This document shows, in pieces, positions 5,387-41,868 of a stretch of DNA of 43,751 nt. This DNA is from Nemertoderma westbladi. Lineage: Eukaryota > Animalia > Xenacoelomorpha. The notes under the pieces are model-generated. The model made no database searches. It worked only from the letters and a program-made list of their open reading frames with translations, and was not told the DNA's origin. Made by a program: the position numbers and the translations under genes. Position 1 is the stretch's first letter; each line of letters starts with the position of its first letter. Where the stretch lies: positions 1 through 43,751 of the forward strand of contig JAUCBJ010007506.1 in the NCBI GenBank assembly GCA_032718475.1, in the 5' to 3' direction.

Positions 5387-5431
5387 CTGTCAATCTGTCA
5401 TACCTATGTGTCTGTCTATACCGTATTTAAT

Positions 5432-6363: not shown

Positions 6364-6971
6364 TTTATTGTCGTAACACTTCGATGACTATGTTCTATTG
6401 TTCTACTGAATGCCTTAATATTATTGAATTTTCTTTAATTCATCTAATTATGCCTATCAGTATATGGAATAAGTGAAATTGAAGTGAATTTTAGATTCAA
6501 CACCTAGGAATGTTTCAAATTAATCAATAGGGCCTAACGTATGCCTATTTAAGTCATATTCAGGGCTGAAAATGATTTAATGTCATTTTTTATCATAAAA
6601 ATTTAACTTTATCTGTTTTTTAATAGTTTCTACACCCACTATATCACTGATTGCGGTTCGAATGAGTCTAATTTTATGACCATGTGACTTCAGGAAGTCG
6701 ACTAAGCGTATTTATCCATTCTCGTACCTTTCGCGACAGCCGCGGAATATACTGGATTTGAAAATTACTGGTGGGGGGACCCCTAAAACTTAATATTTTC
6801 AAACAAAAATTGGTCAGCATTCTTTTTGGACCAGTATCCACCAAATGGCTCACAGAAATCGTAAAATTTCCAAAATTTTATTTTTATGAAACACTCTACC
6901 CCCCCCCCCCCCCCCCCCCCCCCCGGTCTCGAAAAGTAGATCTGGTATGACCACGTCTTTACTTCTCCAGC

Positions 6972-12997: not shown

Positions 12998-14323
12998 TTA
13001 ATTATTAATAATTTTATGAACAGTCTTTATGTGTCTGCTGAGGGAGCTTGGGTGGCTAAATACTTTATCACAACCAGTACAATTATACCGGATTCCACTG
13101 TGAGCAGATTCTATATGAAATTGCAAACCTGATTTGAAAGCAAATGATTTTCCACAATCAGAGCAATTATACTTGATTCCGTTTTTATGAGTTGATTCTA
13201 TGTGAAACTGTAAACTGCGCTTGTAGGCAAATGATTTTCCACAATCAAAACAATTATACTTGATACCCTTATGAATAGAATCAACGTGGTTGCTTAGATG
13301 TGTTTGATGTGTAAATAATTTATCACAAACAAGACATTTATACTTGATTTGGTCATGAACTGAATCCATGTGAAACTGTAAACCGTGTCTAGTAGCAAAT
13401 GATTTCCCACAGTCAAAGCAATTGAACATCTTAATACCTTTATGAACGAAGTCGATGTGGCTGTTTAGATTCCCTTTCTTGCTGAATAGTTTATCACAAT
13501 GAACACAATTGAAATTCTTTATACCTTTATGTACAGAATTGATATGACTGTTTAAGTGTTCTTGTCGTGTAAATAGTTTATCACAGTGACCGCAATTGAA
13601 ATTCTTTATTCTTTTATGAACAGAATTTATGTGATTGTTTAAGTGCCCTTGGCGTGCAAATAGTTTATCACAATGAATGCAATTGAAATTCTTTATTCCT
13701 TTATGAACAGAATTGATGTGACTTTTTAAGTGTCCTTGGCGTGTAAATAGTTTATCGCAAATCTCACACTTATACTTGATGTAGTTATGAATAGAGTTGA
13801 CGTTGGTTCCTAAGTTACTGGCAAAATTTGGTTCAGGATCTGCGGTACAGATTGTTGCATCATTAGGATGCATCAGTGAGACATTATCACATGAGGTATC
13901 ATGCTGTTTTCTAACAATGAGAGTACCGGTACCTTCAGATGATCCACAACTAAAACCTGCCTCAGATTTTACAGAAGAAGAATTCATTCCATGAATATCT
14001 GTGTCATCAGTTTCAATATCATATGGTAAGTGATTGTTGTCATTTCGTTGTTTTACGAGAACAAAAGAATCTATGGATTGTTCATAAGAATTATCTTCTT
14101 CATCTAGAACAGGGATAATATCTACTCCACTGCACAAATTGTTATGATCATTGCTAGGTGAAGCTCTGTAAACGGAGTTTTCAGTTTCAGTTTTAACTTC
14201 CAAAGAATAAGGAGTAGAGTCTGCTACCTCTTCCACTATCATTTCCCCAGAGGGTTTATGTTTCGATGAATTAGTATTGGAATTCGATAACATCTTCCCA
14301 GCATTACAATAACCCTGATGCGA
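12998..14323 (-). CDS. C2H2 zinc-finger protein, last coding exon (9 fingers)
   Basis: Nine CX2CX12HX4H fingers after an acidic/Ser-rich region. Frame is open up to acceptor TTTCCATAG (exon start 14323, phase 0). In-frame ATG at 14293 gives 431 aa if used. Upstream exons not found. Confidence 0.9.
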   Translation of the reverse strand, partial: SHQGYCNAGKMLSNSNTNSSKHKPSGEMIVEEVADSTPYSLEVKTETENSVYRASPSNDHNNLCSGVDIIPVLDEEDNSYEQSIDSFVLVKQRNDNNHLPYDIETDDTDIHGMNSSSVKSEAGFSCGSSEGTGTLIVRKQHDTSCDNVSLMHPNDATICTADPEPNFASNLGTNVNSIHNYIKYKCEICDKLFTRQGHLKSHINSVHKGIKNFNCIHCDKLFARQGHLNNHINSVHKRIKNFNCGHCDKLFTRQEHLNSHINSVHKGIKNFNCVHCDKLFSKKGNLNSHIDFVHKGIKMFNCFDCGKSFATRHGLQFHMDSVHDQIKYKCLVCDKLFTHQTHLSNHVDSIHKGIKYNCFDCGKSFAYKRSLQFHIESTHKNGIKYNCSDCGKSFAFKSGLQFHIESAHSGIRYNCTGCDKVFSHPSSLSRHIKTVHKIINN

Positions 14324-15050: not shown

Positions 15051-15826
15051 ACTACTACTATTAGGTCGAGCGAACTCGGACAGTGGAAATGAGATCCTTC
15101 CAGGCTTCCCGATTCTCCATAGTTGTCGCAATCTCGTTTCTCCCAAGTTCAGTATCCCTTTCAAGTTGATCTATATATGTTATGGCCGGTTGTCCACGAC
15201 TACGCTTTCTGGTATGACCTCGTCTTTACTTCACCAGCAGTGCCCACTGGATCTTAATCTGCGTTCACGGAGGGTGGTTGATACAGGTGATATAGTACCA
15301 TAAAGCTCGGCGTTTGTCATGTGTTGTCTCCAGGTGATGTTTAGGGCTGCCCTTAGTAGTATTGTGTAGCAACCATCAATTCGTTGTTCAAGTGATTTAG
15401 TCAGTGTCCAGGTCTCACCCCCGTATAAAAATACACTTTCCACTGTGGCTCGAAAGAACTTAGTCTTCAGGTGCCTGGAGAGATCTGATTTCCAGATGGT
15501 ATCCATTTTTGATAGAGCTACCCAAGCCTTTGCTTTCCTAACTTCTATGTCCTTTTTGCTACTCTCTATCCACGATCCAAGGTACTGGAAGTCGTCGACC
15601 TTCCTTAGTTGATTATTATCAATGGTTGTCAAGTTTCCATCAACATTAAAGGTCATGAATTCGGTCTTGGTAGCAATTATATGCAATCCAACCTCCTTAG
15701 CAGCCCTCTCCACTTTATTTAGTAGAAGCTGTGCATCTGCTAGTGTATTAGAGAGCAGGGCGATGTCATCCGCAAATTCGGTGTCTGTGACTGCAGTTGC
15801 CGGATATCTACTACTTCTGCGTTCTT
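15051..15826 (-). mobile_element. 3' ~0.8-kb copy of RTE-like LINE (family B)
   Basis: Inverted near-copy of 17926-18728 (FADD to 3' end) with a ~28-bp deletion and a (TAG)n tail. Confidence 0.92.
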
Positions 15827-15877
15827 TCTCACTCGTTTGTACTCTTTTGTACTATTTTTGCACTTTATTGTACTCTT

Positions 15878-18727
15878 CGACATGACATGGTCGCGCTGGC
15901 AATGGAATATAACTTCGACATCATCTGCATCCAAGAACATCGGATTTGTCATGAAGACACTGCCATGAAGTACAATGACATTGGAAATAGATGGACGTTA
16001 GTAACAAGCTCAGCAGTAAGAAACTCGGCCAATGCATCAATTGGTGGAGTAGGAATTCTGCTAAGCCCATTTGCACTTAAGACCCTAAACAACATCGAAT
16101 CTATATGTTCCAGGGTTCCAGAATTCCAGGGTTATGATCGCAACATTTGATGGGAATCCCAAAGCAACAGTTATATGTTGCTACAGTCCAACCAATGCCT
16201 CAGACCCAGAACAAGCAGTCAAGTTTTATGAAGAACTGACTGGACTTATAAAGGACAATCCGAAACACAATGTTAAAGTCATTGCTGGTGACCTGAATGC
16301 GCAAATTGGCCCAGAAGACATCAAGGGTTACACCTATAACACCAGTTCTAACAGAAATGGGTACTTACTTTTAGACCTAATGGAAGAATGTGAATTGATA
16401 CCAACAAACAACACAATCGAAAAGAGTAAGGGGAAGCTATGGACCTTTCAATACCCTAATGGAACCAAAGCACAACTGGATTACATCCTTATAAACAAAA
16501 AGTGGAGAAACAGCATGATCAACTGCGAGGGATACAGCTCGTTCGACCTAATTGGTTCGGACCACAGAATTGTGACTGCAGAGATCAGACTCAGTTTGAG
16601 AGCCAGCAAACCCAGGACAAGCAAGCAAATCAACTATGACTGGGTCTGGCAGAAACTCAGAAATGACATGCTGTAAAGGATGCTTACACAGTAGAAGTTC
16701 AAAACCGCTTTGAAGCACTTCAGTCAATGGATGAAGACCAGTCCACCGATTCAATATACCTGAATATAATAACAGCCCACAAGGAATCAGCTAAGAGGCA
16801 TATCCCCCGGAAACCCAAACAAAAACAGTATGTGCCATGGCAAAACTCTGAGGTTACTTGTAAGAGAGAAGATCTTAAGATAGATTACAAAGTTAAAACC
16901 GAACAACCAACAACCGAAAACATTAACAAGGTTGAGAAAGCTAAGGACGATCTTAAATTGGCCTACAACATCAGCCAGGAAAAGTACATACAGGATAAAA
17001 TTGAAGCAATTACAACTGCTCACATACAGCAACCATCAAGACTTACCTGGCAAACTGTAAATGAGGTATCTGGTCGGAAAAGATGTGCAAAGGGGCTCCT
17101 AAAAGCCGATAGTCCTGAAGAACGTGCTGGGAAGTGGAAAAATCACATCAGCAACTTGCTTGGGCAGCCACCAAACATCGAGGTCAGCCCTACAAGGAAA
17201 ATATATGACAAGACACTACCTATAGAAACAGGGGACTTCACACCTGCGGAACTCCAAAGAAGCATTAAAAGCAAGTCCAATAATAAAGCGAGTGGATTAT
17301 ATGAAATCTCAGCGGAGGTATGGAAAACCGGAGTGCTAAATAGACCATTATTGAATGTTTGCAACCGGATGTTAAAAGGGGAAAAGCCACCACCAATTTG
17401 GACTAAAGGTTAACTAAAGCCTCTCCCATACCTCCGCTCGGCATACCAACAAACTATCGTGGGATCTGTCTGCTTGTGGTAGCTGCCAAAATATACAATA
17501 AAATGATTCTATATAGGATTAGGCCTCACATAGAGAAACTACTGGGTAAGAGCCAAAACGGATTGCGACCAAGTAGATCAACAATAGCTCACATACTTGC
17601 CCTATGGAGACTGACTGAAGGAATTAAGTCAAAGAATCTCCCCGCAGTCATGACTTTTGTGGACTTCAAGAAGGCATTCGACTCCATCCATAAAGGAAAA
17701 ATGCTTGAAATCTTAAGAGCTTATAGAAGTAATTGTTGCTGGCATTGGATTGTTATATTGTGACACAGAAGCGCAGGTACTCTCACCAGATGGTGAAACT
17801 TGAGTTTTTCTCAATCCTGGCTGGCGTACTGCAAGGTGACACATTAGCACCATTACTATTTGTAATTGTACTGGATTATGCAATGAGGACGGTCACAAAG
17901 GGTGAAGATCTGGGATTCACACTTCAAGAACGCAGAAGTAGTAGATATCCGGCAACTACAGTCACAGACACCGACTTTGCAGATGACATCGCCCTGCTCT
18001 CTAATACCCTAGCAGATGCACAGCTTCTACTAAATAAAGTGGAGAGGGCTGCTAAGGAGGTTGGATTGCATATAAATGCTACCAAGACCGAATTCATGAC
18101 CTTTAATGTTGATGGAAACTTGACAACCATTGGTAATAATCAACTAGGAAGGTCAACGACTTCCAGTACCTTGGATCATGGATAGAGAGTAGCAAAAAGG
18201 ACATAGAAGTTAGGAAAGCAATGGCTTGGGCAGCTCTATCAAATATGGATACCATCTGGAAATCAGATCTCTCCAGGCACCTGAAGACTAAGTTCTTTCG
18301 AGCCACAGTGGAAAGTGTATTTTTATACGAGGGTGAGACCTGGACACTGACTATATCACTTGAACAACGAATTGATGGTTGCTACACAAGACTACTAAGG
18401 GCAGCCCTAAACATCAGCTGGAGACAACACATGACAAACGCCGAGCTTTATGGTACAATACCACCTGTATCAACCACCCTCCGTGAACGCAGATTAAGAT
18501 TCAGTGGGCACTGCTGGCAAAGTAAAGACGAGGTCATACCAGATCTACTTCTCTGGCAACCAACTCATGGAAAGCGTAGTCGTGAACGACCTGCCATAAC
18601 ATATATAGATCAACTTGAAAGGGATACTGAACTTGGTTGAAACGAAATTGCGACAACTATGGAGAATCGGGAAGCCTGGAAGGATCTCATTTCCACTGTC
18701 CGAGTTCGCTCGACCTAGTAGTAGTAG
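15878..18727 (+). mobile_element. Near full-length RTE-like LINE (family B): APE endonuclease + RT, frameshifted pseudogene
   Basis: IICIQEHR, YSPT, GDLNAQ, QLDYIL, SDHR (APE); FVDFKKAFDS, GVLQGDTLAP, FADD, RLRFSGHCW (RT and C-terminus). (TAG)n tail. 12-bp TSD TATTGTACTCTT at 15866-15877 and 18728-18739. Confidence 0.95.
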
Positions 18728-19461
18728 TATTGTACTCTTTTGTAGCGGGACTATATTGTACTATTTTGGGTTATCGTTGATACTGTCATATGCGTACCGA
18801 TGGTGTTACAGTGGTGGTGTTTTCTAACCAAAACAATAAACTAATCTCCATTAATTAATTAACGGAAAGGAGCAGGTTACAGTGGTGGGCTTTTCTAACC
18901 AAAACAATAAACATATCTCAATAACATAGGGTATTTCATACTTATAATCTTATTTTTGCAATACGAAAATACCATCGGTACGGATATGAACTATAACTGT
19001 TAATAAATTGCATTAAAAAAATTTATTTATATACCGTATATATATAAACTTATATCAGTATATGGTTGCATGAGTCGTGAGTGTATGGCATATAATATTA
19101 CGAATTTGCATTAACTGTTGGAATCAATGATGTACAATCTGACAATGGTCTGATGGATGGTATAAGCAGATAAGGCTGTAAGGCAATGAGTTGTAGTTCC
19201 AAATAGGCTGATAGGCACAAAACAACTGTATATAACTCAAATAGGCAGATAGGCATAACTCCATACCGCCGGTATATATAATAATAATAATATAAGATAT
19301 AGCCTACAGTCTGACAGTACCGGTAGGCTAACTATTAACACAGTAACACCGGTAATAACAAACTGAAAACAAGGTACCCGGTATACCAATGTGTGAGTAA
19401 GTACAAAACAAATACTGAATACCGGTACCGGTACCCAGACTAAAGACCTGTAGGCTATAAA

Positions 19462-20143: not shown

Positions 20144-20391
20144 TCAGCATGTTACAAGATTAAGATTATGCAGGTTACTTAATTGGGTCTTTGGTCAGTT
20201 GGTCTTTGTTTCGTACTCGGAATATGCCTAAATAAAGTGACTAATGTACTGTACTGCCACCGTACCGGTCTGCCGGTAGGCGTAGGGTAGGTCTACCGCC
20301 TGACCGCCGCTACCGCGGATGTCTGGCTGTAGCTGTGTAGGCTACCGGTCTACCTGCTGACTAACGGTACTGTACTGCTACCGCACCGTTC

Positions 20392-21462
20392 CGCGTCGTT
20401 GGGTCCTTTGGTCGTTAGGTCCTGCGTCGTTAGGTCCTGCGTCGTTAGGTCCTGAGGCATTAGGTCCTGCGACATTAGGTCCTGCGTCATTAGGTCCTGT
20501 TGTGTCATATCGTGCGACGTTAGGTCCTGTGGAGCGTCGTTAGGTCCTGCCTGCCTGCGTCGTTAGGTGGTATTCCACTGCTGTACAGTGAACAGGCTGA
20601 CAGCAGGACAGGTACCGGTGTCCGGTAGGCCACTGTATACTGGTATACAAGGTAGGCCTATATGGCAATATCGTAGGTACCGGTAGTCAGGTAGTAGAAA
20701 GGGTAGGTCGGTATAAACGGTAGGTTGGCCTACTGCCGTTGCGAGGCAGTGTGCAGGGGTGGTAGACTACTTAACCGTGAACTTGAAAGAACTACTTAAC
20801 TGAGTTATTTTTGTATACCGCTACCATTCAAAATCGTTGTAATTTTTACTTTAATCATTTATTCATTCTTAGTGTTGTGTTTGTGTTATCATATGTTAAT
20901 GTTGTTGAACATTTGTGAAAATATGTGTTAGTAATGTTGAAGATAAAAGTAGTGCGGCTATTTGAATCAAGTTTTGAGTGGGCGTTTATTTGGGAGCGGG
21001 AGGGAGGGGGAACTTTTTTCTATTTATGTGAACTATTTTTGTAGGTCGTATGAGCAGTGCTCATGAGAACTGTGCTAGTCAATTGGTTTAGGAGAATGGT
21101 TTAGGGACGCAGTACTCGTCACCATAGAACATTACAAGCCTCGTTGCGCTCGACCTGTTTTAGTCGAAAATATTTCTCATAACGTTAACTTTATAACTAT
21201 GAAAAATGACAAAATGAAATGTGAAATGAAAAATTAAAAAAACTGAAAAATCTGGAAACCCCCCAATCGCCAAAGCCGCAGAGGACCTAATGACGCAGGA
21301 CCTAACGACCAAAGGACCTAATGACGCTATTATAGAAGACCTAATGTCGCAGGACCTAATGACGCAGGACTTAACGCCGCAGGACCTAATGCCGCAGGAC
21401 CTAACGACCACTCACAGGACCTAATGACGCGGGACCTAACGACCAAAGGACCTAATGACGCG
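20392..21462. mobile_element. Fold-back (MULE-like) element with arms built of 15-bp tandem repeats
   Basis: (GCGTCGTTAGGTCCT)n at 20392-20570 is inverted to (AGGACCTAA[C/T]GACGC)n at 21281-21462. No convincing TSD. Confidence 0.7.
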
Positions 21463-24060
21463 TTACCGTCTGCCGGTATGCGGTAGGCTACTCCAACTCC
21501 ATACAGCCATAGGCAATAGGCGTGCCTAGCCTACTCTCAGACTCGGACTCTAAATAAAATTTTTGAAAGTATTGTTGAAGTACAACACCGGTACCGACTG
21601 TATGTATCTGAATTCTGAATATTATGAAATGAGGTAGGCCTACCGGTACCGGTACCCAGCCTACAAACAGGCCACAATCTTTCAGCCGTGCAATATTGGA
21701 CGGTATCGCGCATGTGGCATGCACCCGAAATAATGCGCACTCCCGACTGCATATCCCAATCCTTACAAACTACTGAACTAAATCTCACCAAAATCACACC
21801 AAACCAACTGACCAAATCGTAGCAAATTATTTATTATTATTATTATTATTATTAACACTCATGCAAGCAATACCAGTCAGCCAGTAAATGGCCGAGGAGA
21901 AAACAACCAGTTTACAAACGACACGTACGGTTGTAAAACAAAACAAAATGTACATATAATGACAATAACGGTACATAATGTACGTGATAATTATGTGAAC
22001 AATAACACTCGATAAAAAATTAAAAAAAAAACATATGACAAACATACACGGGTCCGTCTGAACACCCAAATCACACCCAATTGACCAAATCACAACATAT
22101 CCCGGGCCAAATCGTCCGGGCCGAAATGTCCGGTCCGAAACGAATAAAAATTCGCAGCCATATTTTATGTCAGGTTCATTGTAATTACCCACCTTGACTA
22201 TTTGTTGCACTCCTGACATATATTAATTTACAGTTTTGTTTCTGCCGTTTGCAAATGCTCTGTTCAAATGCAAATTCAATGTCGGCTAATGCTTTAAGAC
22301 TACCTAGAGATACACCCCCATAGAAATCCATTACACCAGGGAAAACTAACGGTGAAGGTGAATGACACTTACTACACCAGAAAGCAATCAATGGAACTCG
22401 AATGAATACAATGGAGACCGCGTTAATCTTCAATCTTCTTAAAGGTTCAACTCTCCCACCCTAGGTGGTCAAGTCTCCCCACATTGAGGGAGACTTGACG
22501 CTTTTTCGAAATTACGAATTATTGGTTTTAATTAAAAAAGTTTAAGAGTTGAAATTCTCAAACTCTAACATAATGATAGCAATCATTAATGTAATGTGAA
22601 AAAGTTAAAACGGCATTGGAAAATTTAATTTATCTGTTCTTTAGAGCGATTATACACTTTTGGGGTTCAAGTCTCCACTCAATTACATTGTAATTTTTGA
22701 TTTGTGTTCACCAGTATAAAATGTATGAAAGAAAATATAATAAATAAATAATATTTTGAGTGAATTTTGATCTGGAGACGTTTCGATTTATATTGCATTC
22801 AGAGCATACACCGGGTTTTTAAGTGAATTACATTGTATGCGAGCATATTTTCAATGAAAATAATATATTAATTACTTTATTCTATCAATCGTATAAATTG
22901 TTTATATGGATAATTTAAATTGTTTAGCGTCATTAAAATGGTGCTAAAGTCCCGCTACTCTCACTCAGGTTTAGTAGAAAAAGAACAGGTCAATAGAAAA
23001 GGTTACAGTTTTATTTTTGAGAATAATCAGCTGTTAGTTATTTGCGTCGATTTTTCTCTGGAGAGGGATGAATTTTGAACGCGTCGAAAGCCCCAGTTGC
23101 CTGGAAACGGTTTACTAATCCTAATTGTCTTCCTAAAATACTTATGATATCCTTATAAAGTGACTCACACTGTAAAATAAAGTCATCATCCATGATCAAT
23201 TGCCAATAACGAAATAATAATTGTTGAAATTTGTTTTTCTCAATTTTTTTATATATGAATATCTAAAGTTAAAAACAAAATGTTAATAATACAAATACAC
23301 ACACCTCGTACTTTAATATTACGATATTTACATAGGCAGGCAGGCCACTATGGATAAAATAACTATATTGGAATAAAAATAAATATAATTAGCAAATAAA
23401 TAGAACATACATAACAAACTTCTAAATTAAATTCTGAAAACAAGAGAAGCCCGGAACAGATTGACTACGTAGTGTATCCGTAAATGTCATGTTGCTAAAG
23501 TACTAAGTATCAACTTCAGTGGTAGTAGACCTTTACTAATATAAATAGTCAACATGTATATGGGAAATTTATCCATAATTTAGGACGCACATCGCACAAT
23601 ATCAAATAGTCATATAAGAAGCAATACATTACGTATGTACCGCCCAGTAGCGGTATAATAAAGTGAACTTTATGGAAGACCACTGACCCTGTACACTACA
23701 CGTACAGTACAACATATTTATAAGTACAGATATTAAAAAATGATCATTTTTATACATTATTAATAAACTGAAACCAAATAGCTACTATAGTCTCGTATAA
23801 ATTACAAATTCACTATAAAACATCAAACTGCACATAACCTGACGAAGAAATTAGTACAAATCCATAACGATAACTAATATATATAAATGCGTAAGTGTAA
23901 TTAATGTAATTCCTATGAAATAATTAAAAATTCATGCATATAAATGTCTCAAAATACAAAGCAACTATTCAGAGTAATAAATATTGTGGGTCGAGTCAGC
24001 AGCTATTTGCAGCTTTATACTGACTATTAGCATGATACACTTTATTATTTGATACAGTCG

Positions 24061-30536: not shown

Positions 30537-31855
30537 GATGAAATCCTTGATAGCGGTACCGGTATGACTGTAAGACTGTGTAGTGCTACTGTGTTGACTA
30601 AACAATAACTGACTAGCCTAACTGCCTAAAGCAGTAAAGGAAACAGTGCAGCAGTGAAGTCTGAGGCCAGGAGGCACTGCCAGATTGCATTGGTTAGATA
30701 CAGGCAGATTCAGAATCACAAACAAACAAACAAATCACACCAAATCCGACAGACTGACAAAACTGCAGAACTACATGCACGGCCTTCGCGTACCAAAACT
30801 GCAAGCAATCTCAGTGAACAATAATAATTATACTAGTATACTATCTGAATATTTATACTGTATATTCTGATATTTGCTTCTGACACACACCCCCACCATT
30901 TGCTTCTGACACCCACCCCCACCAACCCACACCACACCCACGCTGAAATACTGACACTTACACCCCCCAGTCTTTCTTACTTTTGGGAAACGACCATGTA
31001 TAATTATAACAGTTTTGACTTGGCCAAGGCCGATGGATAAATAGTTAGCAGGATAAATAAATTAGTAGGCCTTGGACTCGGCCCCCCACAGTCAGACAGT
31101 ATTCCTTTCACAATTCTCAATACTCTCCTACAGTACAGTACGAGTAGGCCGATACTAATGCCGTACATTCGCTTATTCGATAATTATAGTGAAAGTTTTC
31201 TGTGCGTAATAAATGTGAAAAATAATACCGGCATTATTGTACTTTGGGAACCTGTACTTTGACTACCCTACCATACACCACATACCCATACGGACCCTAG
31301 ACTTGCAACATCACCAATCTGCACTGATCTTAGCATAAGATCTTTATATGTCTTGGTCTTTATTGGTTGGTCTTGGTCTTGGTCTTGATCTTTGCTCTAT
31401 GATCTTAGCAGGGTTGGTAACGATCAGTGCAGATCTTTGCAGGATTGGTAAGACCACGGCATATCTCTGGAGTTTTAGTAAGATCAGTGCAGATCTTTGC
31501 AGAATTAATGATATATAACAAAGTTCTGCAAAGATCTTAATAGTTCTCAATCAATAATTCAGCAAAATTGGAAGCATTCTTCTGTTTGCACTGTGGATTG
31601 TTACTATGGAGATATGGCAGTGGGGGATGTACTGTAGAACTAACTTAACACATCTTACCTACATATCCTACTGTACAACTAACACCTTCACACCTAACTG
31701 CCTAACATTTCCTATTGTCCCTATCTGTATATCTATTGTGTGGTAATGGTATTATATTTAAGCAAAACAAATTTCAATTTGGTTTTAAGATAAGCCAATT
31801 TAACTTTGCATTAATATCAATAAATTTATATTAGATTCATATAAATTAATATAAC

Positions 31856-33056
31856 TGTTCGCGCTTTTGAAGACCTTTAGCAGTTTAACCTGCCAAAATT
31901 TATATGTCTTTTAGTTAATTAAAACACCTTTAGCATACGACGATATTTTATGCTAATACACAAAACATTAGCCGAAGTCAGCCCATGCGCGATCATTCAC
32001 CCGATGGATCTACACCCGGGAGGCTGAATTCGGATGCTTAAATTTTATTATTGCAGTGTAAGGTTGCAGTGTAAACTTACTGTATTATTCGATAGATCGT
32101 TAATAATTAATTTCTGACAGATATTATTGGCTTTCGGGAAATATTAACAGTTCCTTTAGGACGTGGCGCTCTATCTATTTAAACAGAACTAAGACTTATA
32201 CTAAAACGCAACGATACTGCTTATGATTAAAGTATAAAGCGCATTCTTTAGGAAATGCTTTGTTACCAATCACAATCATACACACTATTCTGCCGACCGT
32301 CAGTATATTTGATCACACATAAAGAGAGCAGTAATTGACTCATGTAGGGTCTGCTAAATAACATTAGATTCAATACACACCACATTAATATAAATCGCAA
32401 TTGTTATGTATAGCCTGTCTCTCTAACCTGTAGTGTATCAAGAAAATTGGGAAATTTGGGAGATTTATCCGTATTATCCAAAGAGCAATATTTCCATCAA
32501 CAAATAGGTACAATTAATAACTGACGGTAAATAACAGTACAAACAATATGATTAATAGTGAGTTAAGATTGATTAGTTAAGTTAAGATTCGTTAGGATTC
32601 GGTAACAGTTTATACTTTCGATAATTTAAGCAGTTTTACTAGAGTTCTTCCCAAAAAGCCGGTGTTATGGCGAAAATGGGAACACAACAACAGAATCATA
32701 TAAAATCATATGACTACTACCACTATACGAGTATACCAAAACCCTTATTCCACGAAGCCCCGTTCAACACAGAGGATGAGCATAGAGATAGGGAATTCAG
32801 TTCAGTAGCGCTGGGATAGGTCGAAATCAACGCCCACGCACATTCTATTGGCCGACACGGACAGCAAGGCTTAGGCAACCTCCCTACACTGGTTGGCCGA
32901 TTAAACTGAGCCCAGATATCTCCACACAGCACATCAGCCAATAAGCTGGTAGCTTGCACTATTTTAGTTATAAATCCCTTTGAGAGTATTCCAGCGACCG
33001 GGGGGGAACTGGCCAGCAAAGGCAAACGTATCAGTTATCCCACAAAAGCTTTTACA
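31856..33056 (-). mobile_element. 3' LTR of the BEL/Pao element (left boundary uncertain: 31856 or 31905)
   Basis: Begins TGTAAAAGC right after a purine tract. The terminus is corroborated by the copy ending at 204. AATAAA near 32044 on minus; candidate ends ...GCGCGAACA or ...AAAAGACA. Confidence 0.55.
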
Positions 33057-33064
33057 CCGCTCCC
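33057..33064 (-). promoter_or_regulatory. Polypurine tract (GGGAGCGG) preceding the 3' LTR
   Basis: Minus strand reads GGGAGCGG|TGTAAAAG. Confidence 0.55.
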
Positions 33065-33134
33065 AGAAAATGGGATTTAAGTCTATAAAATATACAAAAT
33101 CACAGTTTCTAAAATATAAAAATACTCTAAACAG

Positions 33135-34886
33135 TTAGTCTTTCTTGCGCGGACGGCGTTTACGCAGTTTTTTAAAGCTAGCAAGAGTCCTTTTCTCTTT
33201 GGGGCGAGCCACTTTAAGAGGAGGGCTATAACTCCTGGGTGAAGGGTGCAATATGATTGCATCAGAAGGCATGGGATTGCGATCGGTATATCCGCCGGTC
33301 GAAGTACCGGGTTGATTGACATCAACGTCTGGGGAGAGGGGTCTAACGGCTTTGAGAGCTCGTTTCAAGACAGCCGCTCTTACGGGTCCTTTACGAGTGG
33401 TCTGAACGAGGGCCGTGGGTGGACCATAGGCAGTTAGAAACTTCCTTGGTTTAATGGTTCTTTCCAACTCGCGTTCGCGGGCTCTGTACTCGTAAGGCCG
33501 TCGATATACTTCTTGTAACTCGGGGTGTGAGTTGACAAATAAGTCTCCATAGGCCGGATCTTGACGGATAAAGTTTATTAAGTTATACGAATTGATGTCA
33601 CTCGGATTAATGCTCCTGAGGAATTTGCGTACATATTTGGTTGAAATACATTCTCCAACGCGCTTCAATAGTTCATAACTTGATAGGCGCAATTTCTGCT
33701 CGACGGAGGCAAACAAATAAGGATGGAACGCATAAACTCCTTCGTAAGCGCGTCCAGGATAATAGCGATGGCGTGAATCACAATGTAAATCAGCGTTCGC
33801 TTCCCAAGCTCTGATATAACATAGTACAATCATTTCATCTACGCTCTCTAAATCATGGTTAAAGGGACAATCAAAGCTGGCGTGTCCTTTTAATTGACAA
33901 TGATGGCATTGAGTCATAAATTGGGGGCAGACAGCAAAAATGTGCAAATTATTAAGCCGACAATATGCACAATAGATTTCCATCGACGGTTGCTCGTGGA
34001 AATAGGAACAAAGATCGTTGGTGTCCATAGACGTAATATGGTCTCTCGATGCGCACAGCCGACAACGTTGTCTAGAAACATAATTGGCATGGCGATAATC
34101 ATACGCAGTAAGACACTGGGGACCTTGATACCATTCCAATATGTAGTCGCTATCGCTACTCCGAGACGTGGGGGGCTGAATCTCTTCAGATTCTAAACAT
34201 ATGGGTTCGTCTTCCCCTTGTATAGTTGAGGTAGGCGTGGCTGTCTCCTCAAGTGGACCTACCGTCTGAATTTCCACGACAGAATAACCGGTGGGGATCC
34301 GAGGTCTTTGGATAACCGAGGAGTGCAGGTTTATTACACAAATGTCTCTGAAAATAGCGAATCCAGCGCTATCTAACTTCTCCGCAGCCGAGTCTCTTAA
34401 GCTGAGCTTGGTCAAAGCGCGGTCTTTGAATTGGCTATCCACGTTGCGAAACGGGGTTAAAAACCGTCGGAAACATTCAAAGCGGATGAATTTATTATGT
34501 TCATCTAGCTTAGCGAGTTTGGTCCCAAGGATTAATGGATGGGCGCGTATAGTGCGACTGCACACATCGGCTAGCCAACCGGAAAGTGCGGTGTTTTCGA
34601 AGATCGTGTAGATAGCTAAGGAGGGACGGAGTGGAACACTCATGAAGCTATACACGGCGCCAGGTGCGGTCAACGGTCCGTCAAAGTATAATCGAGAATA
34701 ATGGTCTCCGTATACTTGTTGATAGTTGATGGGATTTCCGACCTTGAAATTCCACCCGTATTCCATTACGATTCGTATAGCGAGCGGTGAATTTTCTATA
34801 GTCCGATTCACACGTAAGTTGTTCCTGGGACATCGGCGGTTCGATATAACGACCATCGTCCTCCGTAATAGTCGGATCGGCTTCAC
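33135..34886 (-). CDS. Accessory ORF of the BEL/Pao element: unknown protein with CCHC zinc-knuckle cluster and basic C-terminus
   Basis: 583 open codons (first ATG 34856). CX2CX4HX9C, CX2CX5HX4C and CX2CX4HX4C at ~34064-33868. Ends KKLRKRRPRKKD. No signal peptide or TM segment visible. Confidence 0.8.
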   Translation of the reverse strand: MKPIRLLRRTMVVISNRRCPRNNLRVNRTIENSPLAIRIVMEYGWNFKVGNPINYQQVYGDHYSRLYFDGPLTAPGAVYSFMSVPLRPSLAIYTIFENTALSGWLADVCSRTIRAHPLILGTKLAKLDEHNKFIRFECFRRFLTPFRNVDSQFKDRALTKLSLRDSAAEKLDSAGFAIFRDICVINLHSSVIQRPRIPTGYSVVEIQTVGPLEETATPTSTIQGEDEPICLESEEIQPPTSRSSDSDYILEWYQGPQCLTAYDYRHANYVSRQRCRLCASRDHITSMDTNDLCSYFHEQPSMEIYCAYCRLNNLHIFAVCPQFMTQCHHCQLKGHASFDCPFNHDLESVDEMIVLCYIRAWEANADLHCDSRHRYYPGRAYEGVYAFHPYLFASVEQKLRLSSYELLKRVGECISTKYVRKFLRSINPSDINSYNLINFIRQDPAYGDLFVNSHPELQEVYRRPYEYRARERELERTIKPRKFLTAYGPPTALVQTTRKGPVRAAVLKRALKAVRPLSPDVDVNQPGTSTGGYTDRNPMPSDAIILHPSPRSYSPPLKVARPKEKRTLASFKKLRKRRPRKKD

Positions 34887-34971
34887 CGCGTATCAAGCTA
34901 TCCACAAACGCTTGTAAAGGTAGAGTATATCGCTCTCTAATATCAAGGTCATCTTCTATCAATTCCGTCAT
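34681..34971 (-). CDS. 96-aa ORF overlapping the 5' end of the accessory ORF (possible true N-terminus)
   Basis: ATG start, acidic N-terminal half, 206-nt overlap in a different frame. Confidence 0.4.
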   Translation of the reverse strand: MTELIEDDLDIRERYTLPLQAFVDSLIRGEADPTITEDDGRYIEPPMSQEQLTCESDYRKFTARYTNRNGIRVEFQGRKSHQLSTSIRRPLFSIIL

Positions 34972-35343
34972 ATCTGCTATCTGAGTTTATTAATCTCAAT
35001 ATGAGTTAATATTTTAGGCAAGCGGGCGTCGCTGCCTACTAGGCTTTGCCCCCGGACAGTGGGTTTCTCAGCGCCGATGTACCGCTGTCGCAGTGTTTAC
35101 GCCAACATGTAGCAACAGCACGACAACGATAACCGGCACAAGTCCCACCACTGTCCGTCCCAAAGGCTTGAATCCACTTGAGGTTATCTCGGTAGAGTTA
35201 GGGCTATTTTACAATTGCGATTAGCTACTGTAAACACACTTTAGTAGTAACATTCACCTATAAACGCACAAATTCCATACAATCATTACTTACTGCACAC
35301 ATGCATGCCATTTGTCCGTTAGTCAGTGTCTTCCAGAATGTCA

Positions 35344-36315
35344 TGTTATTACTATGTATCCTTGGATACTAATAGTGCGCTATGTATACTCTTATGCTAC
35401 GCAATGGGGCAAGCTTTTTATTGTTCCTTTAACTTGCTTCTAATTCTAGCGTGGGTGTTGCCATGGTGACATTATGGAAAACTAGCGGTAGAATTAGGGC
35501 AATTCTCATGTATACAGATCTGGGATGTTATTTAATAGTAATTCTTTAATTGTCAATCTTCTCTTTATGCCTGATTTTATAAATTTTATCGGCTATTGAC
35601 TATATATTGGAGATTCTCGCACTCTAGTACACTCAATATGAATCTCCGCTCCCATGATCTATTAATTACTGGAATTTTGGGAATGTTGTAAATTGCACAA
35701 AATGACAATTTATGAAATTCATTCGAATATGAATTTAAATTTATTCCCGTGAATTTTATTATTTGATGTTAAAATTGACACAATTTGATTCCAGAGCAGG
35801 TCTGGGGACATAGGATCCTTAATTCTATGAAATTTGTCTTTTAAGAGTATCGGTAAGTGCTACGATATCTTAATCGACTAGAATTGTTAACGGATCTGAA
35901 TTTTACAGATTTTAATAAATATTAAATTAATATTTAGGATGGGCACCGATTTATTCCAGAACTTGTCTGGGGACGTTAACCACTGATTCTAGAATTTGTC
36001 TTTCAAGTATATCGGTGGGTGCCACGATATCTTAATTGACTAGAATTACAGATGGTCAAAAGTTTAACAGATTTATTTGCGATTTACGCTACTGTTAGAG
36101 GGACATCACGCTACTATATGTATTATTTGTTATAAGGTAGAAGAGCAATATCGCACGAAGCAATGTCAGTGTGAAGAGGCAAGTCGTTTCCAAGGTCTAC
36201 CCAGAGCTTGGTTTAGCCGAGACACGAGGATCTGAACTTTGCATTCCTAATACTCTGCCTACCAATAATACTTAAATATAGTAGTGGCTTTATTGTACTT
36301 TAAGAAGTACTGACA
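35344..36315 (+). mobile_element. Solo LTR (972 bp) inserted between pol and the accessory ORF
   Basis: TGTTATTACT...AGTACTGACA (8/10 inverted match). 5-bp TSD TGTCA at 35339-35343 and 36316-36320. Internal ~165-bp imperfect repeat; TATA-like TATAAGG near 36131. Strand is tentative. Confidence 0.75.
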
Positions 36316-36591
36316 TGTCATCTTACTATAGTCTCGCATTTATAATATAATACGGACAGTAAGGAAAGAGAAAAATAATTATTTCTTGCCGTCGCACTAA
36401 ATATATTATAAGTAATTAAATACGTAATAAACACTAATATATTGCACTAATTTACTAAATATTCTAAAAATAACCTTTTACTAAATAAAATTAAATAAAA
36501 ACGATTATAATAACGTACATAATAACATTTACATATAAAAATGTAATAAAAACAGATAAAATAACATAGACATACACCCACTCCAGACGTA

Positions 36592-39500
36592 CTACGTTGA
36601 AGAGCCCCTAGATGTTTGAGGTATTAGGGAGGTGGTCGTGGGAAGAGTGTCTTGTCTTCCATAGTTTCCGGAGAGTTCCCTGTCTCTTTCCAGCAAACAT
36701 AAGCGACCAACTGGGCGATTGAGTTGTTGCGTCTCAAAGATTATCCCGGGTTTCTTGAAGTTACGCCGCATTACGACGAGTTCTACTGAGCGCACTAGAC
36801 CATCCTCCGAGATATGCGTCTCGATGATACGACCGATCTGCCACCGTCTACGTGGGAGGTCCGGATCTACAATAAGGACCATGTCTCCGGCGCTGACATT
36901 TTCCTGCTGCGCAAACCACTTAGTTCGAAGTTGTAGCGTGGGCAGATAATGTTTCTCAAAATGGTCAGCGAAACGACGGGATAGCAACTGCATAAGCTGC
37001 CAAGTTCGACGACAGTATTCATCTCCATCGGCAATCTCGGATTGTGGGAGCATGGCTACAGGTTTCTTAAGTAGGAAGTGCGCGGGTGTTAGCGCTTCCA
37101 GGGAGTCGATACTCGATGAGACTGGCATAAGCGGTCTCTCGTTAAGATAGGCAGCGATTTCTTCCATTAACGTCCGTAGAAGTTCGTCGGTGAGATATGC
37201 GCGGCACGGCACTATAAAGTGAAATGCGGTCTTGACACTTCGAATTAATCTCTCCCAACTTCCTCCCCACCAAGGGGCATCGGCGGCGTTAAAGGTCCAG
37301 CTAGACGCCGTTATCCGTAGCTGGTCATCCACCTGTCTTTGATTCCAGTCCTTTACGTAAGCCTGAATTTCGTTGTTGGCACCAATGAAGTTCGTTCCCT
37401 TATCGGATCTCATCGTATTGCTAGTGCCGAAACGAGCGATCTGTCGTCGTAAACATAAGACGAAGCTGTTAGTAGATAGATCGTTCACCATATCGAGATG
37501 GATAGCTCTACAAGTCATGCAGACAAAGATTACACACCATCTTTTGATTATAGTTCTAGCACGATATACTTCAATAGGGCCAAATAAATCCACACCAGTA
37601 TTAGTAAAGGGTGGTTCATAAAAGCTTACTCGTTCCCTAGGTAATTCTGCCTCTCGCTGTGTTAAAGGCCTACTGAATACTTTCCTACAAGGTATGCAGT
37701 TCCTAAGAACTTGATTCAGAGCTCTACGTGGTTTATGAAAATAATAGCGGGTTCGAATTTCGCTAAGAACTCGTTCTCTACCAGCATGATACAGTTTACT
37801 GTGAACATCTACAATCATCTTGATTTGTACTTCAAGATTACTAATGAGTATAGGGAATTTAGTATCAAAAGATAATGGAGCGTTGGTAAGTCTTCCTCCA
37901 ACGCGTATTAACCCATCTATCATTGTGCTAGAGAAGCGATCCCTTAAGCGCATCTGCGGATTTCTTAACAACAGAAAATACTTATCGGGATCCTCATAGC
38001 ATTGCAAGAGTCTCAGTATCTGCTTATTAGTTTCTTCATGCTCCTGGTAGCTGATCTTCTCTTTTAGAAACCGGTCTGATATCTTGTACTTAGGTAGATC
38101 TTTAATAACATGAACTTGCGCAGATGTTACCGGAGCAGGATCACTAGTGGTCTTCTTCCTGGAGTAATGATGGTAAAAACATCTCTTTAAGTATGTGATA
38201 GCTTTACAGAGACGATTCCAGGAACTGTAATGATGCAATGCTCTCTGCAGCAGGGGTGAGATTCCTTGCGAGACGTCTGGTATCTCAGATTTCCAATCTC
38301 TGTCTCTAATTTCCACAACAGATTTGTTTGTGGCGAGGGATTGTGGATCCGAAGTATCGTTCTCGGCAGTATGTAATACAGATAGGTCGATTGTCGGTTT
38401 AAATAACTTCGATTTACTTGTCCGAATTTTGGGTTTGACTTTCTCCGCTCCCTTGGCTTGTCTAATCTCAGCCGTAGTAAGGTGAGGAGGCCATTCATCC
38501 TCTTCCTCGCTCAAGAAGCCGGGTCCACCCAACCAGTCAGGGGTATCTATCAGTTCCTGTGGAGTTGCTCCTCTGGAGGCGATGTCAGCTGGGTTAATCG
38601 TACCGGGGCAATGTCTCCATTGATCTATCGTTGTGCGACTAAGAATAATGGCTACTCTGTTAGTAACAAAGACGCTGAACTGACAGACTTCATTCGTTAT
38701 ATATTCCAATACAAGTAAAGCGTCGGTCCAATAAACAGTTTTCTCCAGTGGATAATCGATCTGTTCTGTTACATTCCGTCCGATAGCTGTAGCGTATAAT
38801 GCTGCTTTTAACTCCGCCCGAGGAACCTTAAGCTTGTTGTTAATCAATGCCTTAGAGGTAACCAAGGCAACTTTGATTCCATCCGGAGTTTCGACTCGCA
38901 GATATGCTACTATACCGATCCCCATATCGCTGGCATCTCCAAATACATGAAGTTGATAGGAATACGTAGGGAGAACATGACCAAAATATGAACGGGAAAT
39001 TATAAAGTTCTCGATGGCAGGTAGCGAATCCTCCCATTTCATCCATTTCTTTAATAGTTCTCCCTTGAGTGGATCGTCCCACGAGTGGTTTTCCAGCCAC
39101 ATTTGTTGTACTAAACTCCGAGCAATCAATATAACTGGGCTAATAAATCCCAAGGGATCGAAATAAGTGCTCAGAATACTTAAACAAATCCGTTTGGTCC
39201 GAACTGGATTATCTCGCTGTTTTAACTGAAAAAACAGGATATCTCTTTCTGTGTCCCACTTCAAGCCAAGCGTCTTGGTTTCCGGAAGATCGTCATGTAT
39301 TAAGTCGAGATCTTTTGATCCCCGGTCTTCTACAGATATTGCTTCCAGAAACTCACGGGAGTTGCTGGTGAACTTCGTCAATCGAAATCCACCTCTTTTC
39401 AAACACTCAACCGTTCCTTTCGCGACATCAATGGCTTCCTTTACTGATGGAAGGGACTTTAAATTGTCGTCCATGTATATGTCTCGTTTGATGTTATCTA

Positions 39501-39791
39501 TCACCTCTTTGGAGAAGGCATCCCGGTTGTCATCCGCAGTGGTACGGACCACTGAGCAGGCGTTTGAAGGGCTTGATATAATCCCAAAAGCCTGGATGGT
39601 CATCCAGTACTCTACCGGTTTCTGGTTGAGATCTCCTTCAGGCCACCACAGGAATCTTAGGCTGTCTCTATCCCGATCCAACGCCTTGACTTGTAGGAAC
39701 ATTCCTTCTATATCGGAGGCGAACGCGATGGAATATTGTCTTAATCTCAACAGTATCCCCAACAAAGATTGGAGCAAGTTAGGTCCTGGTA
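36592..39791 (-). CDS. BEL/Pao retrotransposon pol (RT-RNase H-integrase-DUF5641-like), 5'-interrupted
   Basis: GPNL, DIEGMF, YMDD (RT); LHVFGDAS, PRAEL, WTD, NPADIASRG (Pao RNase H/peptidase A17 region); H-H-CIPC, GVDLFGP, SDKGTNF, GGSWERL (integrase); LTPAHFL, DGLVRSV. Over 1060 codons without a stop. Gag and protease absent from the window. Confidence 0.95.
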
Positions 39792-40051
39792 AGTAGTATA
39801 CAATGCTATGACACTGGATAATGGTCACCCGTAGCCCATCATTACCGTCCATTTCTGGTACTCTGTCCAATCAGAAGCCACTATTTCAACCTTTAGCGGT
39901 GGTCGTTATTATTTCATCCAATCAGATGTCAGCATTTAATCCGTAACCATGGCAACTTCTCAAGTTCCCGCTTATTCCGCTAGAGGCGTTATTAGTCACC
40001 CAACGCTACTCATCCGTCCAATCATAAGCCTTTATTTTACAAGTGTTTGGA

Positions 40052-40270
40052 TGTCTACAGGTAACTTCTACTATTTTTCAAATCGCAATTTTTCAGCAAC
40101 CAGTATTTTTCATATTTACCAACCTTTATTTTACAGACGCTAGAGGTGTCTACAGGTAACTTCTACTATTTTTCAAATCGCAATTTTTCAGCAACCAGTA
40201 TTTTTCATATTCACCAACCTTTATCTTACAGACGCTAGAGGTGTCTACAGGTAACTTCTACTATTTTTCA
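40052..40270. repeat. Tandem repeat, ~2.3 x 95 bp
   Basis: TGTCTACAGGTAACTTCTACTATTTTTCA at 40052, 40147 and 40242. Confidence 0.92.
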
Positions 40271-40821
40271 CCAGTAACTAAATTTAATTTTGCAATTTTT
40301 CAGATAACAAAATATTCAACAGGGTTCGAACTCGGGACCATTATAACTCCCCACATTCCTCCACTCACTCCCCCATCCAACCTCGAGAGAAAAAGGCGAT
40401 AAATATCTGAGTTATACCATAGTCATTGAATTCTTCATCTTCATCACCGGTAGCAGATGTTTATAAATAGTTTCTAGTTCCTTATCATAATTACTATAGC
40501 GTAGAATACATTAATTCGACTATTAATAATAATCAATTTCTTTTATCGATGTAACTGATCGATCAACTAAGTTGAATATAAGTTAGAATGATAGGGCTAG
40601 CATTGATTACGTTGCATCTGTTACATGTTACTGCTATTTCACTCTCTAACTCACGCTAATGTAATAAATTTATCTGTACACGTTGCATCTGTTACACGAA
40701 GCTACTATATTCCTCACTGTAAGTCACTCTGCTGTATTAAACCAACCATATAAACCGAAGTTTTACAATCTAATAATCATTTATTTAGTTTTTATTTTTC
40801 AAAATAGTTTTCATTCTAATT

Positions 40822-41868
40822 ATGGATTTATTTAAAAAAACTTCAAGCAATACTTGGAAATTTACATTTAATAAATATACCTGTAGTATTGTTTATGGCA
40901 AGTACTTTATATTACTCTCATGCGATAGCAATGTAACAACATGCTTCTCTTACCTGGATACACTCTACCTTCTAGACGTCTTAGAAATATTATTCAACCA
41001 ACAAAAGGAATCACCAGTTTCAAGAGGTAATATTTATCCTAATATAGAATTTACAAGAGGAAAGTTAAATATTTCCACCTGTGTTATTACTGAAAACGTA
41101 TATATTCAGAAGCATGGCAAATGTCAAATTCTAAACAAATCACTCATTAATTTATTGCTTCAGAGTAAGACAGAAATATTAGAATTGTTATCACCACCAC
41201 TCGAAATAATAAATCAGTGTTATGTTGTTAATTTAACCAACCCATCTTTTGTTGGTTTTGTAAGCAAATATAAAGGAGCGACTTATATGGGACTATGGGA
41301 GATTTCAGCTAGATATTCTGATGCTATTGGTCTTAGGTATTATAATGGGTTTAACTTAACAGCATCGGAAGTAAATTCATTGTGGTATGAATGGAATTAT
41401 GAAATTAGTAACGAAGGTGTCTTTTCAGAGCTAGATACGGACGATAAAGTAGCTTTATCTGACCGACTTAAAGTAAAAATAAATGTACAAGAAAAAAAAG
41501 TAATTATTACAGACAAGGAAAGCAAATATTTACAGTTACATTACGATAAAGACATACCTCATATAGAGTTTCTCTACGATATGATGTTAAAGGTTTCATC
41601 AACTGATATAGCAGACGGTTTCGTGATTCTATATCCACCAACTTGGAAGTTTAAGGATAATAAGTCATTTCCAGAAGTAGTTTCATCCACATTTAATCCA
41701 AAGACATACATCGAAGAGACCTCGAGTGATAGAAAGCGCAGATCTACATCTCAAACATCTTCCATTCCCAACAATGATTCTATACCTACAAAGAAAATAA
41801 AAGTTACAAAAGCAAGTGAAGAGGTAGCAGATTACAATAAGGAACATATAAAAACAATATCAGATTGA
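40822..41868 (+). CDS. 348-aa hypothetical protein with a PC4-like ssDNA-binding motif
   Basis: Intact intronless ORF. VSKYKGATYMGLWE...NGFNLTASEVNSL resembles the PC4 pattern VxxFKGxxxxDIRE...KGISLxxEQWxxL. Basic RKRR and KKIK in the C-terminus. Confidence 0.6.
   Translation: MDLFKKTSSNTWKFTFNKYTCSIVYGKYFILLSCDSNVTTCFSYLDTLYLLDVLEILFNQQKESPVSRGNIYPNIEFTRGKLNISTCVITENVYIQKHGKCQILNKSLINLLLQSKTEILELLSPPLEIINQCYVVNLTNPSFVGFVSKYKGATYMGLWEISARYSDAIGLRYYNGFNLTASEVNSLWYEWNYEISNEGVFSELDTDDKVALSDRLKVKINVQEKKVIITDKESKYLQLHYDKDIPHIEFLYDMMLKVSSTDIADGFVILYPPTWKFKDNKSFPEVVSSTFNPKTYIEETSSDRKRRSTSQTSSIPNNDSIPTKKIKVTKASEEVADYNKEHIKTISD

Follow-up and report, generated by a model that had tools for sequence, protein, structure and literature searches.

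A non-env zinc-knuckle gene and a candidate spliced RNA in a BEL/Pao retrotransposon of Nemertoderma westbladi

The ICTV profile of the Belpaoviridae describes BEL/Pao elements of 4.2-10 kb with gag, pol and env only and with LTRs of 0.2-1.2 kb preceded by a polypurine tract (PPT) of ~10 nt, and terms their replication poorly understood (PMC8742986). The available part of PMC554778 gives the triple box of BEL Gag as CX2CX3-4HX4C, CX2CX2-4HX4-5C and CX2-4CX3HX4H. In LTR elements more widely, third ORFs typically come from spliced messages, according to the accessible sections of PMC5408684, and third ORFs that do not encode an env protein have earlier examples in other LTR groups (the same sections, and those of PMC5718144). 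The locus reported here, put forward as a candidate for an undescribed system by a first-pass annotation, is thus not the first of its general kind. What is new is a joint between LTR position 32428 and position 35188, a candidate spliced RNA. Besides this joint, the far LTR end at 31856 and an overlapping ORF of 96 codons (34971-34681) are additions to the first-pass annotation. Our survey of the open literature, which lies outside Repbase, Dfam, GyDB and subscription papers, returned no non-env or zinc-knuckle extra ORF, LTR donor or back-splicing in BEL/Pao, and the element sequences of PMC3118150 may hold such.

The element lies in a 43,751-nt contig of Nemertoderma westbladi (JAUCBJ010007506.1; hereafter the window) and comprises the following features.

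31856..33056, minus strand: 3' LTR, 1,201 bp, TGT...ACA, ends read from the sequence
33057..33064, minus strand: short polypurine tract GGGAGCGG adjoining the LTR, from the sequence
33135..34892, minus strand: accessory ORF of 585 codons from stop to stop, lying between pol and the 3' LTR
33867..34064, minus strand: knuckle cluster, aa 277-342 of the accessory ORF (motif scan, weak zf-CCHC_3)
34681..34971, minus strand: overlapping upstream ORF in another frame, 96 aa, acidic N-terminal part (ORF scan)
34972..36591, minus strand: 1.6-kb non-coding spacer from pol to the accessory unit, stops in three frames, repeated with the element
36592..39792, minus strand: BEL/Pao pol, 5'-truncated, with RT (YMDD), RNase H region (PF05380), integrase H2C2 and core, DUF5641

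The element and its third gene

The element is a BEL/Pao retrotransposon of a many-copy family, and the assignment made from the letters alone is upheld by its domains and relatives. A Pfam profile search of pol returned PF05380 (E 2.5e-36), DUF5641 and integrase H2C2, and domain matches together with motifs give the Pao-type order of RT, RNase H and integrase. Relatives at E<=1e-30 number 798 of the 7,995 sequences scored; the best listed share 32-44% identity, all 120 listed carry PF05380, and the named matches are from marine invertebrates and fish. The 1,201-bp LTR and its PPT also fit the published BEL/Pao ranges. TATA-like words occur in the LTR at 32973 and 32614, its sole AATAAA is at 32049, and non-canonical poly(A) hexamers lie at 32640, 32614 and 32469. 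The spacer contains a degenerate ~162-bp duplication, and there is no Rfam match in 31500-41000.

The window copy had been described as having an intact pol and as recently functional. No stop interrupts its pol frame between RT and integrase, but likeness to relatives starts only at 39792 (aa 27), where the 5' part is cut. When four longer relatives, two exceeding 1,800 aa, were used as tblastn queries, no gag or protease was found in the window, and repeat and sequence scans of the window returned no 5' LTR; an LTR fragment at 114-204 was ruled out for that role, as it is on the wrong side and has a different flank. Because gag, protease and 5' LTR are missing, this copy is a dead, 5'-truncated family member, which contradicts both descriptions. 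The stretch from RT start to LTR end alone spans 7.9 kb, and we infer a full-length element of ~11-12 kb.

The accessory frame, earlier put at about 580 codons on the pol strand, runs for 585 codons and stops 78 bp from the LTR TGT at 33056, an interval that ends in the PPT, in line with the proximity first noted. Its first ATG is at 34856 (573 aa) and its next at 34766 (543 aa); translation probably starts some way into the frame, with ATG 34766 and a 543-aa product favoured. The protein is laid out as an N-terminal domain, an acidic S/T/P linker, the knuckles, a predicted helical region and a basic tail. The three CCHC-type knuckles claimed at the outset are all found: CX2CX4HX9C at aa 277 is atypical, CX2CX5HX4C at aa 308 is also a variant, and CX2CX4HX4C at aa 329 is the sole canonical motif. 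Pfam scores them below threshold, with zf-CCHC_3 at E 0.1 on the whole protein and at E 0.0025 when 87 aa were searched separately (18.1 bits against a gathering score of 27). The basic tail likewise holds up, with 26 K/R against 6 D/E over aa 480-585. An export-signal-like stretch picked out by eye at aa ~394-404 was dropped, one of its leucines being private to the window copy, and two single-sequence structure predictions were unusable (pLDDT 34 and 40).

The accessory ORF is not env-like, in agreement with the first reading. By hydropathy (best value 1.33 over 19 residues) the protein lacks a TM anchor and a hydrophobic signal or fusion segment, and Pfam gave no match to an env family; its one N-glycosylation sequon precedes the likely start, and a furin-like motif occurs only in the basic tail. 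From its sequence it is also not a copy of BEL gag, since the triple-box pattern, which 47 of the 120 relatives retrieved possess, is absent from it and a gag-region profile of the pol relatives gave no match. Homologs were not found by a word-index search (near lengths, and shorter lengths with region 250-482), by phmmer against 1.84 billion representatives (0 matches at E<=0.001), in PHROGs or in metagenome and viral contigs; PDB sequences gave 3 matches, at E 0.55-2.2 only. ESM Atlas neighbours of the knuckle region include zf-CCHC and AIR2-like knuckle clusters (<=0.86, leads only), with none for aa 43-215. These blanks weigh little because the collections searched contain few animal transposon proteins. 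By sequence comparison the gene appears to be an orphan. Related elements have nothing or env at that place.

Linkage and variation among family copies

Contigs of four public sequencing runs (X1, X3, X4 and X5) were compared with the window. Flank contigs end at 31854, where contig depth climbs, and summed depth in X1 rises from ~1,000 in the left flank to 137,000-1,250,000 over LTR, ORF, spacer and pol; the X3/X1 depth ratio is 0.34-0.87 in 30/30 bins. Whether other copies lack the ORF was the obvious challenge to its membership, and none of the 15 joints listed, of 53, skips it. The family also has DNA deletion derivatives (36729-38438, in X1, X3 and X4), and each listed contig piece covers less than the whole element. 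The accessory ORF belongs to the element, being repeated together with LTR, spacer and pol.

Variation among its copies looks protein-constrained, judging from the variant sequences. From codon 43 on, 13 of 20 listed variants are synonymous, compared with 22 of 29 in pol. Among variants with a share <0.9 in X1 the synonymous count is 12 of 15, where 28% would be expected. Treating the variants as independent gives p 5e-5, but this value is too small, because the rows analysed are the top 40 of 619 and those within a subfamily are linked. Gap letters relative to substitutions in contig pieces are 4/919 in the accessory ORF (28 pieces) and 6/519 in pol (14 pieces), compared with 38/183 outside ORFs (10 pieces). 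Deep X5 contigs have single-letter indels in the accessory ORF at 33860, 34017 and 34166 (3 of the 12 listed rows, of 69), and X5 joints with unknown letters between span 33521-33682, 33326-33453 and 34133-34251; the forms abundant in X5 may therefore carry frameshifts or just be divergent. The 96-codon ORF, possibly a second product, has 7 listed variants, 3 of them synonymous; all 3 fall among the 4 in its non-overlapping part. A frameshift private to the window copy that would fuse this ORF with the long one was considered and rejected, no such indel being among the same 12 listed rows.

The joint between the LTR and position 35188

The joint in X5 connects two splice-site-like sequences and is readable as GT..AG.

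32422..32430, minus strand: splice-donor-like site CAG/GTTAGA in the LTR, exon end 32428 (X5 joint end)
35188..35205, minus strand: splice-acceptor-like site, AG ends 35188 (X5 joint end)

The donor matches 7/9 of the consensus and ties for best with 4 others among 81 LTR GT sites. The acceptor ranks 6 of 95 spacer AG sites for pyrimidine content, has a branch-point-like CCCTAAC upstream and stands in a non-canonical GAG context in the window copy. Two X5 contigs of different sequence carry the joint, at depths 1108 and 493. Eight bins cover 32451-34986; the ratio of X5 to X1 depth lies between 12 and 29 in seven of them and at 3.5 in the other, as against 0.1-3.0 over spacer and pol. This is no more than a weak hint; contig depth is a poor measure, and contigs give no strand, ends or level. 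The profile of X4, a run guessed to be RNA, is as flat as that of X1 and its contigs show no splice joint, so that it is silent on expression. The suggestion that RNA-seq be checked for a spliced subgenomic mRNA was thus borne out in part: X5 holds a candidate junction, but it is one of four runs, its library is guessed to be DNA, and none of the runs is recorded as RNA.

We regard the joint as likely to mark a spliced RNA that carries two ORFs, the acidic one of 96 codons and that of the knuckle protein. That it arose by splicing is probable; that the product is a linear mRNA stands at even chances. X5 depth is low over 32428-32030, a stretch that a linear mRNA ending via AATAAA 32049 should cover, and the excess ends near 32428 and 35188. 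Back-splicing from the 3' LTR donor to acceptor 35188 would leave an identical junction in a 2,760-nt circular RNA with both ORFs, which is unlikely; cleavage upstream of 32428, at the hexamers named above, or splicing from the 3' LTR to a site in the flank would produce an identical depth profile, itself drawn from contigs of an unrecorded library type. Less likely again is a deletion or tandem derivative of the DNA, with X5 genomic and the ORF expressed otherwise. The guessed nature of X5, the known deletion derivatives and the 2 letters that the sides of the joint have in common all favour such a derivative, but the joint recurs in two sequence variants at GT..AG, a reading open to 0.5% of random LTR-spacer joints, and is unlisted in X1 and X3, runs under the same species label, as in X4, although the listings for these three include joints with a depth as low as 5.

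Clustered CCHC knuckles are typical of gag- and ORF1-type proteins, and the ORF might accordingly have come, as gag or ORF1, with an independent element (LINE, DIRS or other LTR) that inserted once into a family ancestor, or be a second nucleocapsid-like protein, three knuckles superficially resembling the BEL triple box. We hold this to be improbable, as the triple-box pattern and gag-region profile failed and as the nested-element check raised by the first-pass annotation found neither remains of an RT nor a poly(A) tail or terminal repeats next to the ORF, which has no repeats bounding it and is itself repeated with pol, while the spacer is closed in three frames; ongoing constraint further argues that the ORF serves its host element. 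Ancient capture of a LINE-, DIRS- or gag-type gene is a possible origin. As to function, the same gene and RNA could yield a protein directed against host silencing or RNA decay (by piRNA, RNAi or the nuclear exosome), or one that switches on transcription from the LTR, a doubtful option to which the knuckle-cluster neighbours lend a lead. The genes beside the 3' LTR of foamy viruses are the transactivator Tas and the defence antagonist Bet, as the available part of PMC3185757 describes, and in the sections seen of PMC11952523 an MDG1 short accessory transcript is still expressed while full-length RNA is silenced. Homolog searches, on the other hand, gave no similarity to such proteins.

On balance we lean towards a non-env zinc-knuckle gene, likely with its own spliced RNA, whose product is predicted to be a nuclear, Rev-like regulator of element RNA. 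Rev-like export factors recognise a response element in unspliced RNA, which they export. Lentiviral Rev is a regulatory protein with a basic stretch for RNA binding and nuclear signalling, and the basic tail of the window ORF resembles such a signal. In the favoured model, a donor in the 5' LTR would join acceptor 35188, gag-pol would be removed by splicing, and the resulting RNA would be translated into an acidic peptide of 96 aa and, with ATG 34766 as start, into the knuckle protein. Knuckles and basic tail would bind RNA in the nucleus, which we predict with some assurance. The accessory product may then help unspliced genomic RNA to survive or exit the nucleus, because an LTR-internal donor would divert most transcripts from gag-pol; this is the most likely single function, offered tentatively and with odds somewhat against it. 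A bolder and unlikely version is an envelope-less BEL/Pao element with independently evolved complex-retrovirus logic, in which the LTR donor would feed an abundant two-ORF RNA (possibly the 2,760-nt circle) and the orphan protein and acidic peptide would switch spliced to genomic RNA or shield the element from silencing.

Comparison with known systems

A constrained orphan gene with a candidate junction offers a handle on the balance of spliced and genomic RNA, or on silencing resistance, in BEL/Pao elements, and cautions that their third ORFs are not automatically env. If Rev-like or anti-silencing, the gene would mean that an accessory function of retroviral type arose separately in an invertebrate-type retrotransposon, and it would found a new family of RNA-binding proteins.

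The element shares with BEL/Pao (Belpaoviridae, Semotivirus) the RT-RNase H-integrase order, PF05380, DUF5641, a TG..CA LTR, here at the 1.2-kb upper limit, and a short PPT; it differs in a third gene that is not env-like and in an inferred length above the 4.2-10 kb range. The env-bearing BEL/Pao elements Tas and Cer7, as covered in the accessible part of PMC554778, likewise have their third ORF downstream of pol and ahead of the 3' LTR, but the window ORF differs in its missing TM segment, single sequon and tail-confined furin-like motif. Bdelloid rotifer Juno and Vesta also carry non-env, family-specific ORF3s expected from spliced messages, although these are not BEL/Pao elements and, in the available text of PMC5408684, their ORF3s encode DEDDy exonucleases, GDSL esterases or proteins with TM/coiled-coil features, not zinc-knuckle proteins. 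Drosophila MDG1-group sORF1 is similar in being an accessory ORF on its own short transcript with a nuclear product; it is ~110 aa, lies 5' of gag, uses early polyadenylation and has no knuckles reported in the part of PMC11952523 available. Foamy viruses come close in layout, with regulatory ORFs (Tas and Bet) beside the 3' LTR and a splice donor within the LTR, in the R region, but Tas and Bet arise mainly from an internal promoter, unlike the proposed LTR-donor RNA (PMC3185757, as far as its available sections go). With foamy virus Tas and Bet, as with Rev, no sequence similarity was found, and the likeness is one of analogy only.

Anatomy of the element and its surroundings

The window carries an LTR retrotransposon on its minus strand, of which the 3' two-thirds is present.

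36592-39870, minus: pol, a 1,092-codon frame matching PF05380, integrase H2C2 and DUF5641
1.6 kb between pol and the accessory ORF, minus: spacer with stops in all frames
Starting at ATG 34971, minus: 96-codon ORF overlapping the accessory ORF
33135-34892, minus: accessory ORF, following the spacer and preceding 78 bp and the LTR; the 78 bp end in a short purine run
33056 (TGT) to 31856 (ACA), minus: 3' LTR of 1,201 bp

Of 7,995 scored, 798 are relatives of pol at E<=1e-30; those with a name belong to marine invertebrates and fish. Similarity to these relatives begins at 39792, within RT, neither gag nor protease was found in the window by tblastn with four longer relatives, and no 5' LTR was found there. 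This copy is therefore dead, and its pol is not intact as the first-pass annotation had described it. Flank contigs end at 31854.

Within 39793-41868, the DNA truncating pol is itself repeated, at lower depth, and contains a 95-bp tandem repeat. Beyond it, a 359-codon plus-strand ORF (40789-41868) has a basic motif near its end and no match in Pfam or PHROG. A 91-bp piece of the start of the same LTR (114-204, 92% identical) begins exactly at TGT with no PPT and is an independent truncated insertion. Other features of the window are as follows.

15051-18728: inverted arms of ~780 bp (96%) around LINE endonuclease and RT fragments (16089-18185)
12998-14323: nine C2H2 zinc fingers encoded in a single frame of 441 codons
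8945-9781: frame of 278 codons, containing a cytidylyltransferase-like domain (E 3e-17) and weakly matching the fukutin N-terminal
4665-6898, 20378-21469 and 9834-10602: several MITE- or foldback-like elements, having terminal inverted repeats with subterminal 15- or 21-bp tandem units

Repetition and coding constraint of the accessory gene

Contigs from four of the seven public sequencing runs containing the element (X1, X3, X4 and X5) were compared with the element region; among the contig pieces listed, none covers the whole element. Summed contig depth in X1 is ~1,000 in the left flank versus 137,000-1,250,000 over LTR, ORF, spacer and pol, and X3 parallels it (X3/X1 ratio 0.34-0.87). These depths, which do not equal copy number, show that the accessory ORF is repeated like pol. 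No joint among the 15 listed (of 53) leaves out the ORF.

A 1.7-kb deletion internal to pol (36729-38438) occurs in X1, X3 and X4 contigs; it marks a non-autonomous derivative in which the accessory gene may be retained. X4, which carries another species label, has the element over 31817-39800, partly at 98-99% identity, with low flat depth and almost no flank cover; a mixed sample, a sister species or a recent transfer are possible readings.

Among the best 40 of 619 variant rows, 20 lie in the accessory ORF from codon 43 on; of these, 13 are synonymous, as are 12 of the 15 with a share <0.9 in X1, against a neutral expectation of 28%. One of five near-fixed variants is synonymous, and these look like this copy's own decay. 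For pol the count is 22/29 (best 40 of 1,279 rows). These rows were selected by the tool, and variants are linked within subfamilies. Gap letters per substitutions, counted from 64 listed pieces after removal of 7 duplicates and of 5 lying beyond the element, were 4/919 in the accessory ORF, 6/519 in pol and 38/183 elsewhere. Against constraint stand three one-letter indels that deep X5 contigs show within the ORF, and three joints of X5 that also lie within it, with unknown letters between their sides. The accessory gene is a real and constrained orphan in this BEL/Pao family.

The accessory protein

From stop to stop the ORF spans 585 codons, the first 42 of which are arginine-rich (10 K/R versus 1 D/E) and seem to be off-frame. 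The best start context is that of ATG 34766, the probable start, which gives a product of 543 aa. In each of the four runs, loose contig ends pile up at 34763 (5, 1, 43 and 17 contigs), immediately behind this ATG; a subfamily whose N-terminal region differs therefore diverges there. In the non-overlapping part of the upstream 96-codon ORF, three of four listed variants are synonymous and at third positions, but over its whole length only three of seven are synonymous, and one places a stop at codon 82. This ORF may encode a real short product or act as a regulatory upstream ORF.

The protein has an acidic linker and a basic tail. Its top hydropathy is 1.33, so it has no TM anchor, in agreement with the earlier reading. 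The three CCHC-type motifs noticed at first pass are present (aa 277, 308 and 329), and only the last is canonical. The BEL Gag triple-box pattern, as defined in PMC554778, is absent from the ORF and present in 47 of 120 fetched relatives; the ORF gave no hit against a profile of the relatives' gag regions. No homolog was found by word-index, phmmer, PDB sequence, PHROG, or metagenome and viral contig searches. ESM Atlas neighbours are zinc-knuckle-type clusters with scores <=0.86.

A candidate splice junction and comparison with known elements

Two X5 contigs of differing sequence (depth 1108 and 493) connect the spacer with the LTR. Both run on the minus strand through the LTR to 32428 and then continue at 35187, with divergent letters between allowed for. 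GT follows the LTR side (32428) and AG precedes the spacer side, a reading open to 0.5% of random LTR-spacer joints. The donor-like site matches 7/9 consensus positions, which ties it for first place among 81; the acceptor, at rank 6 of 95, is mediocre. The joint is not listed in X1, X3 or X4, whose listings reach joints of depth 5. X5/X1 depth is 12-29 in seven of eight bins over 32451-34986 versus 0.1-3.0 over spacer and pol, a weak hint. The ratio is likewise high in the flank bin, owing to low X1 depth. We infer that the joint in X5 (labelled 'DNA?', library off record), a candidate splice junction, is of RNA origin. X5 depth is low beyond 32428, though the sole AATAAA lies at 32049; such a drop would agree with cleavage at an earlier site, with splicing into flanks, or with a back-spliced circle of 2,760 nt.

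In the proposed mechanism, the 5' LTR donor would be spliced past gag-pol to 35188, the resulting RNA would yield a short acidic peptide as well as the knuckle protein, and the latter's knuckles and basic tail would bind RNA in the nucleus. Rev-type proteins solve the problem of delivering unspliced RNA. Since the LTR carries a good donor, yet unspliced RNA must be delivered, we place a Rev-like role first among the predicted functions, tentatively and at rather low probability. Anti-silencing or trans-activation, taken together, rank below it as a doubtful prediction. Complex-retrovirus-like control through a two-ORF RNA, possibly circular, we consider improbable.

BEL/Pao elements of 4.2-10 kb encode gag, pol and sometimes env (PMC8742986), env being carried by few, according to PMC3118150. 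Our literature search, with Repbase, Dfam and the PMC3118150 supplements outside its scope, returned no BEL/Pao element whose third ORF encodes zinc knuckles. MDG1 elements have a short transcript encoding a nuclear accessory protein (PMC11952523), and foamy viruses have a donor in LTR R along with regulatory genes on the 3' side (PMC3185757). LTR elements of rotifers and plants are known to carry non-env third ORFs (PMC5408684, PMC5718144, PMC2774666). With non-env third ORFs already known in other LTR elements, a zinc-knuckle one in BEL/Pao is a variant.
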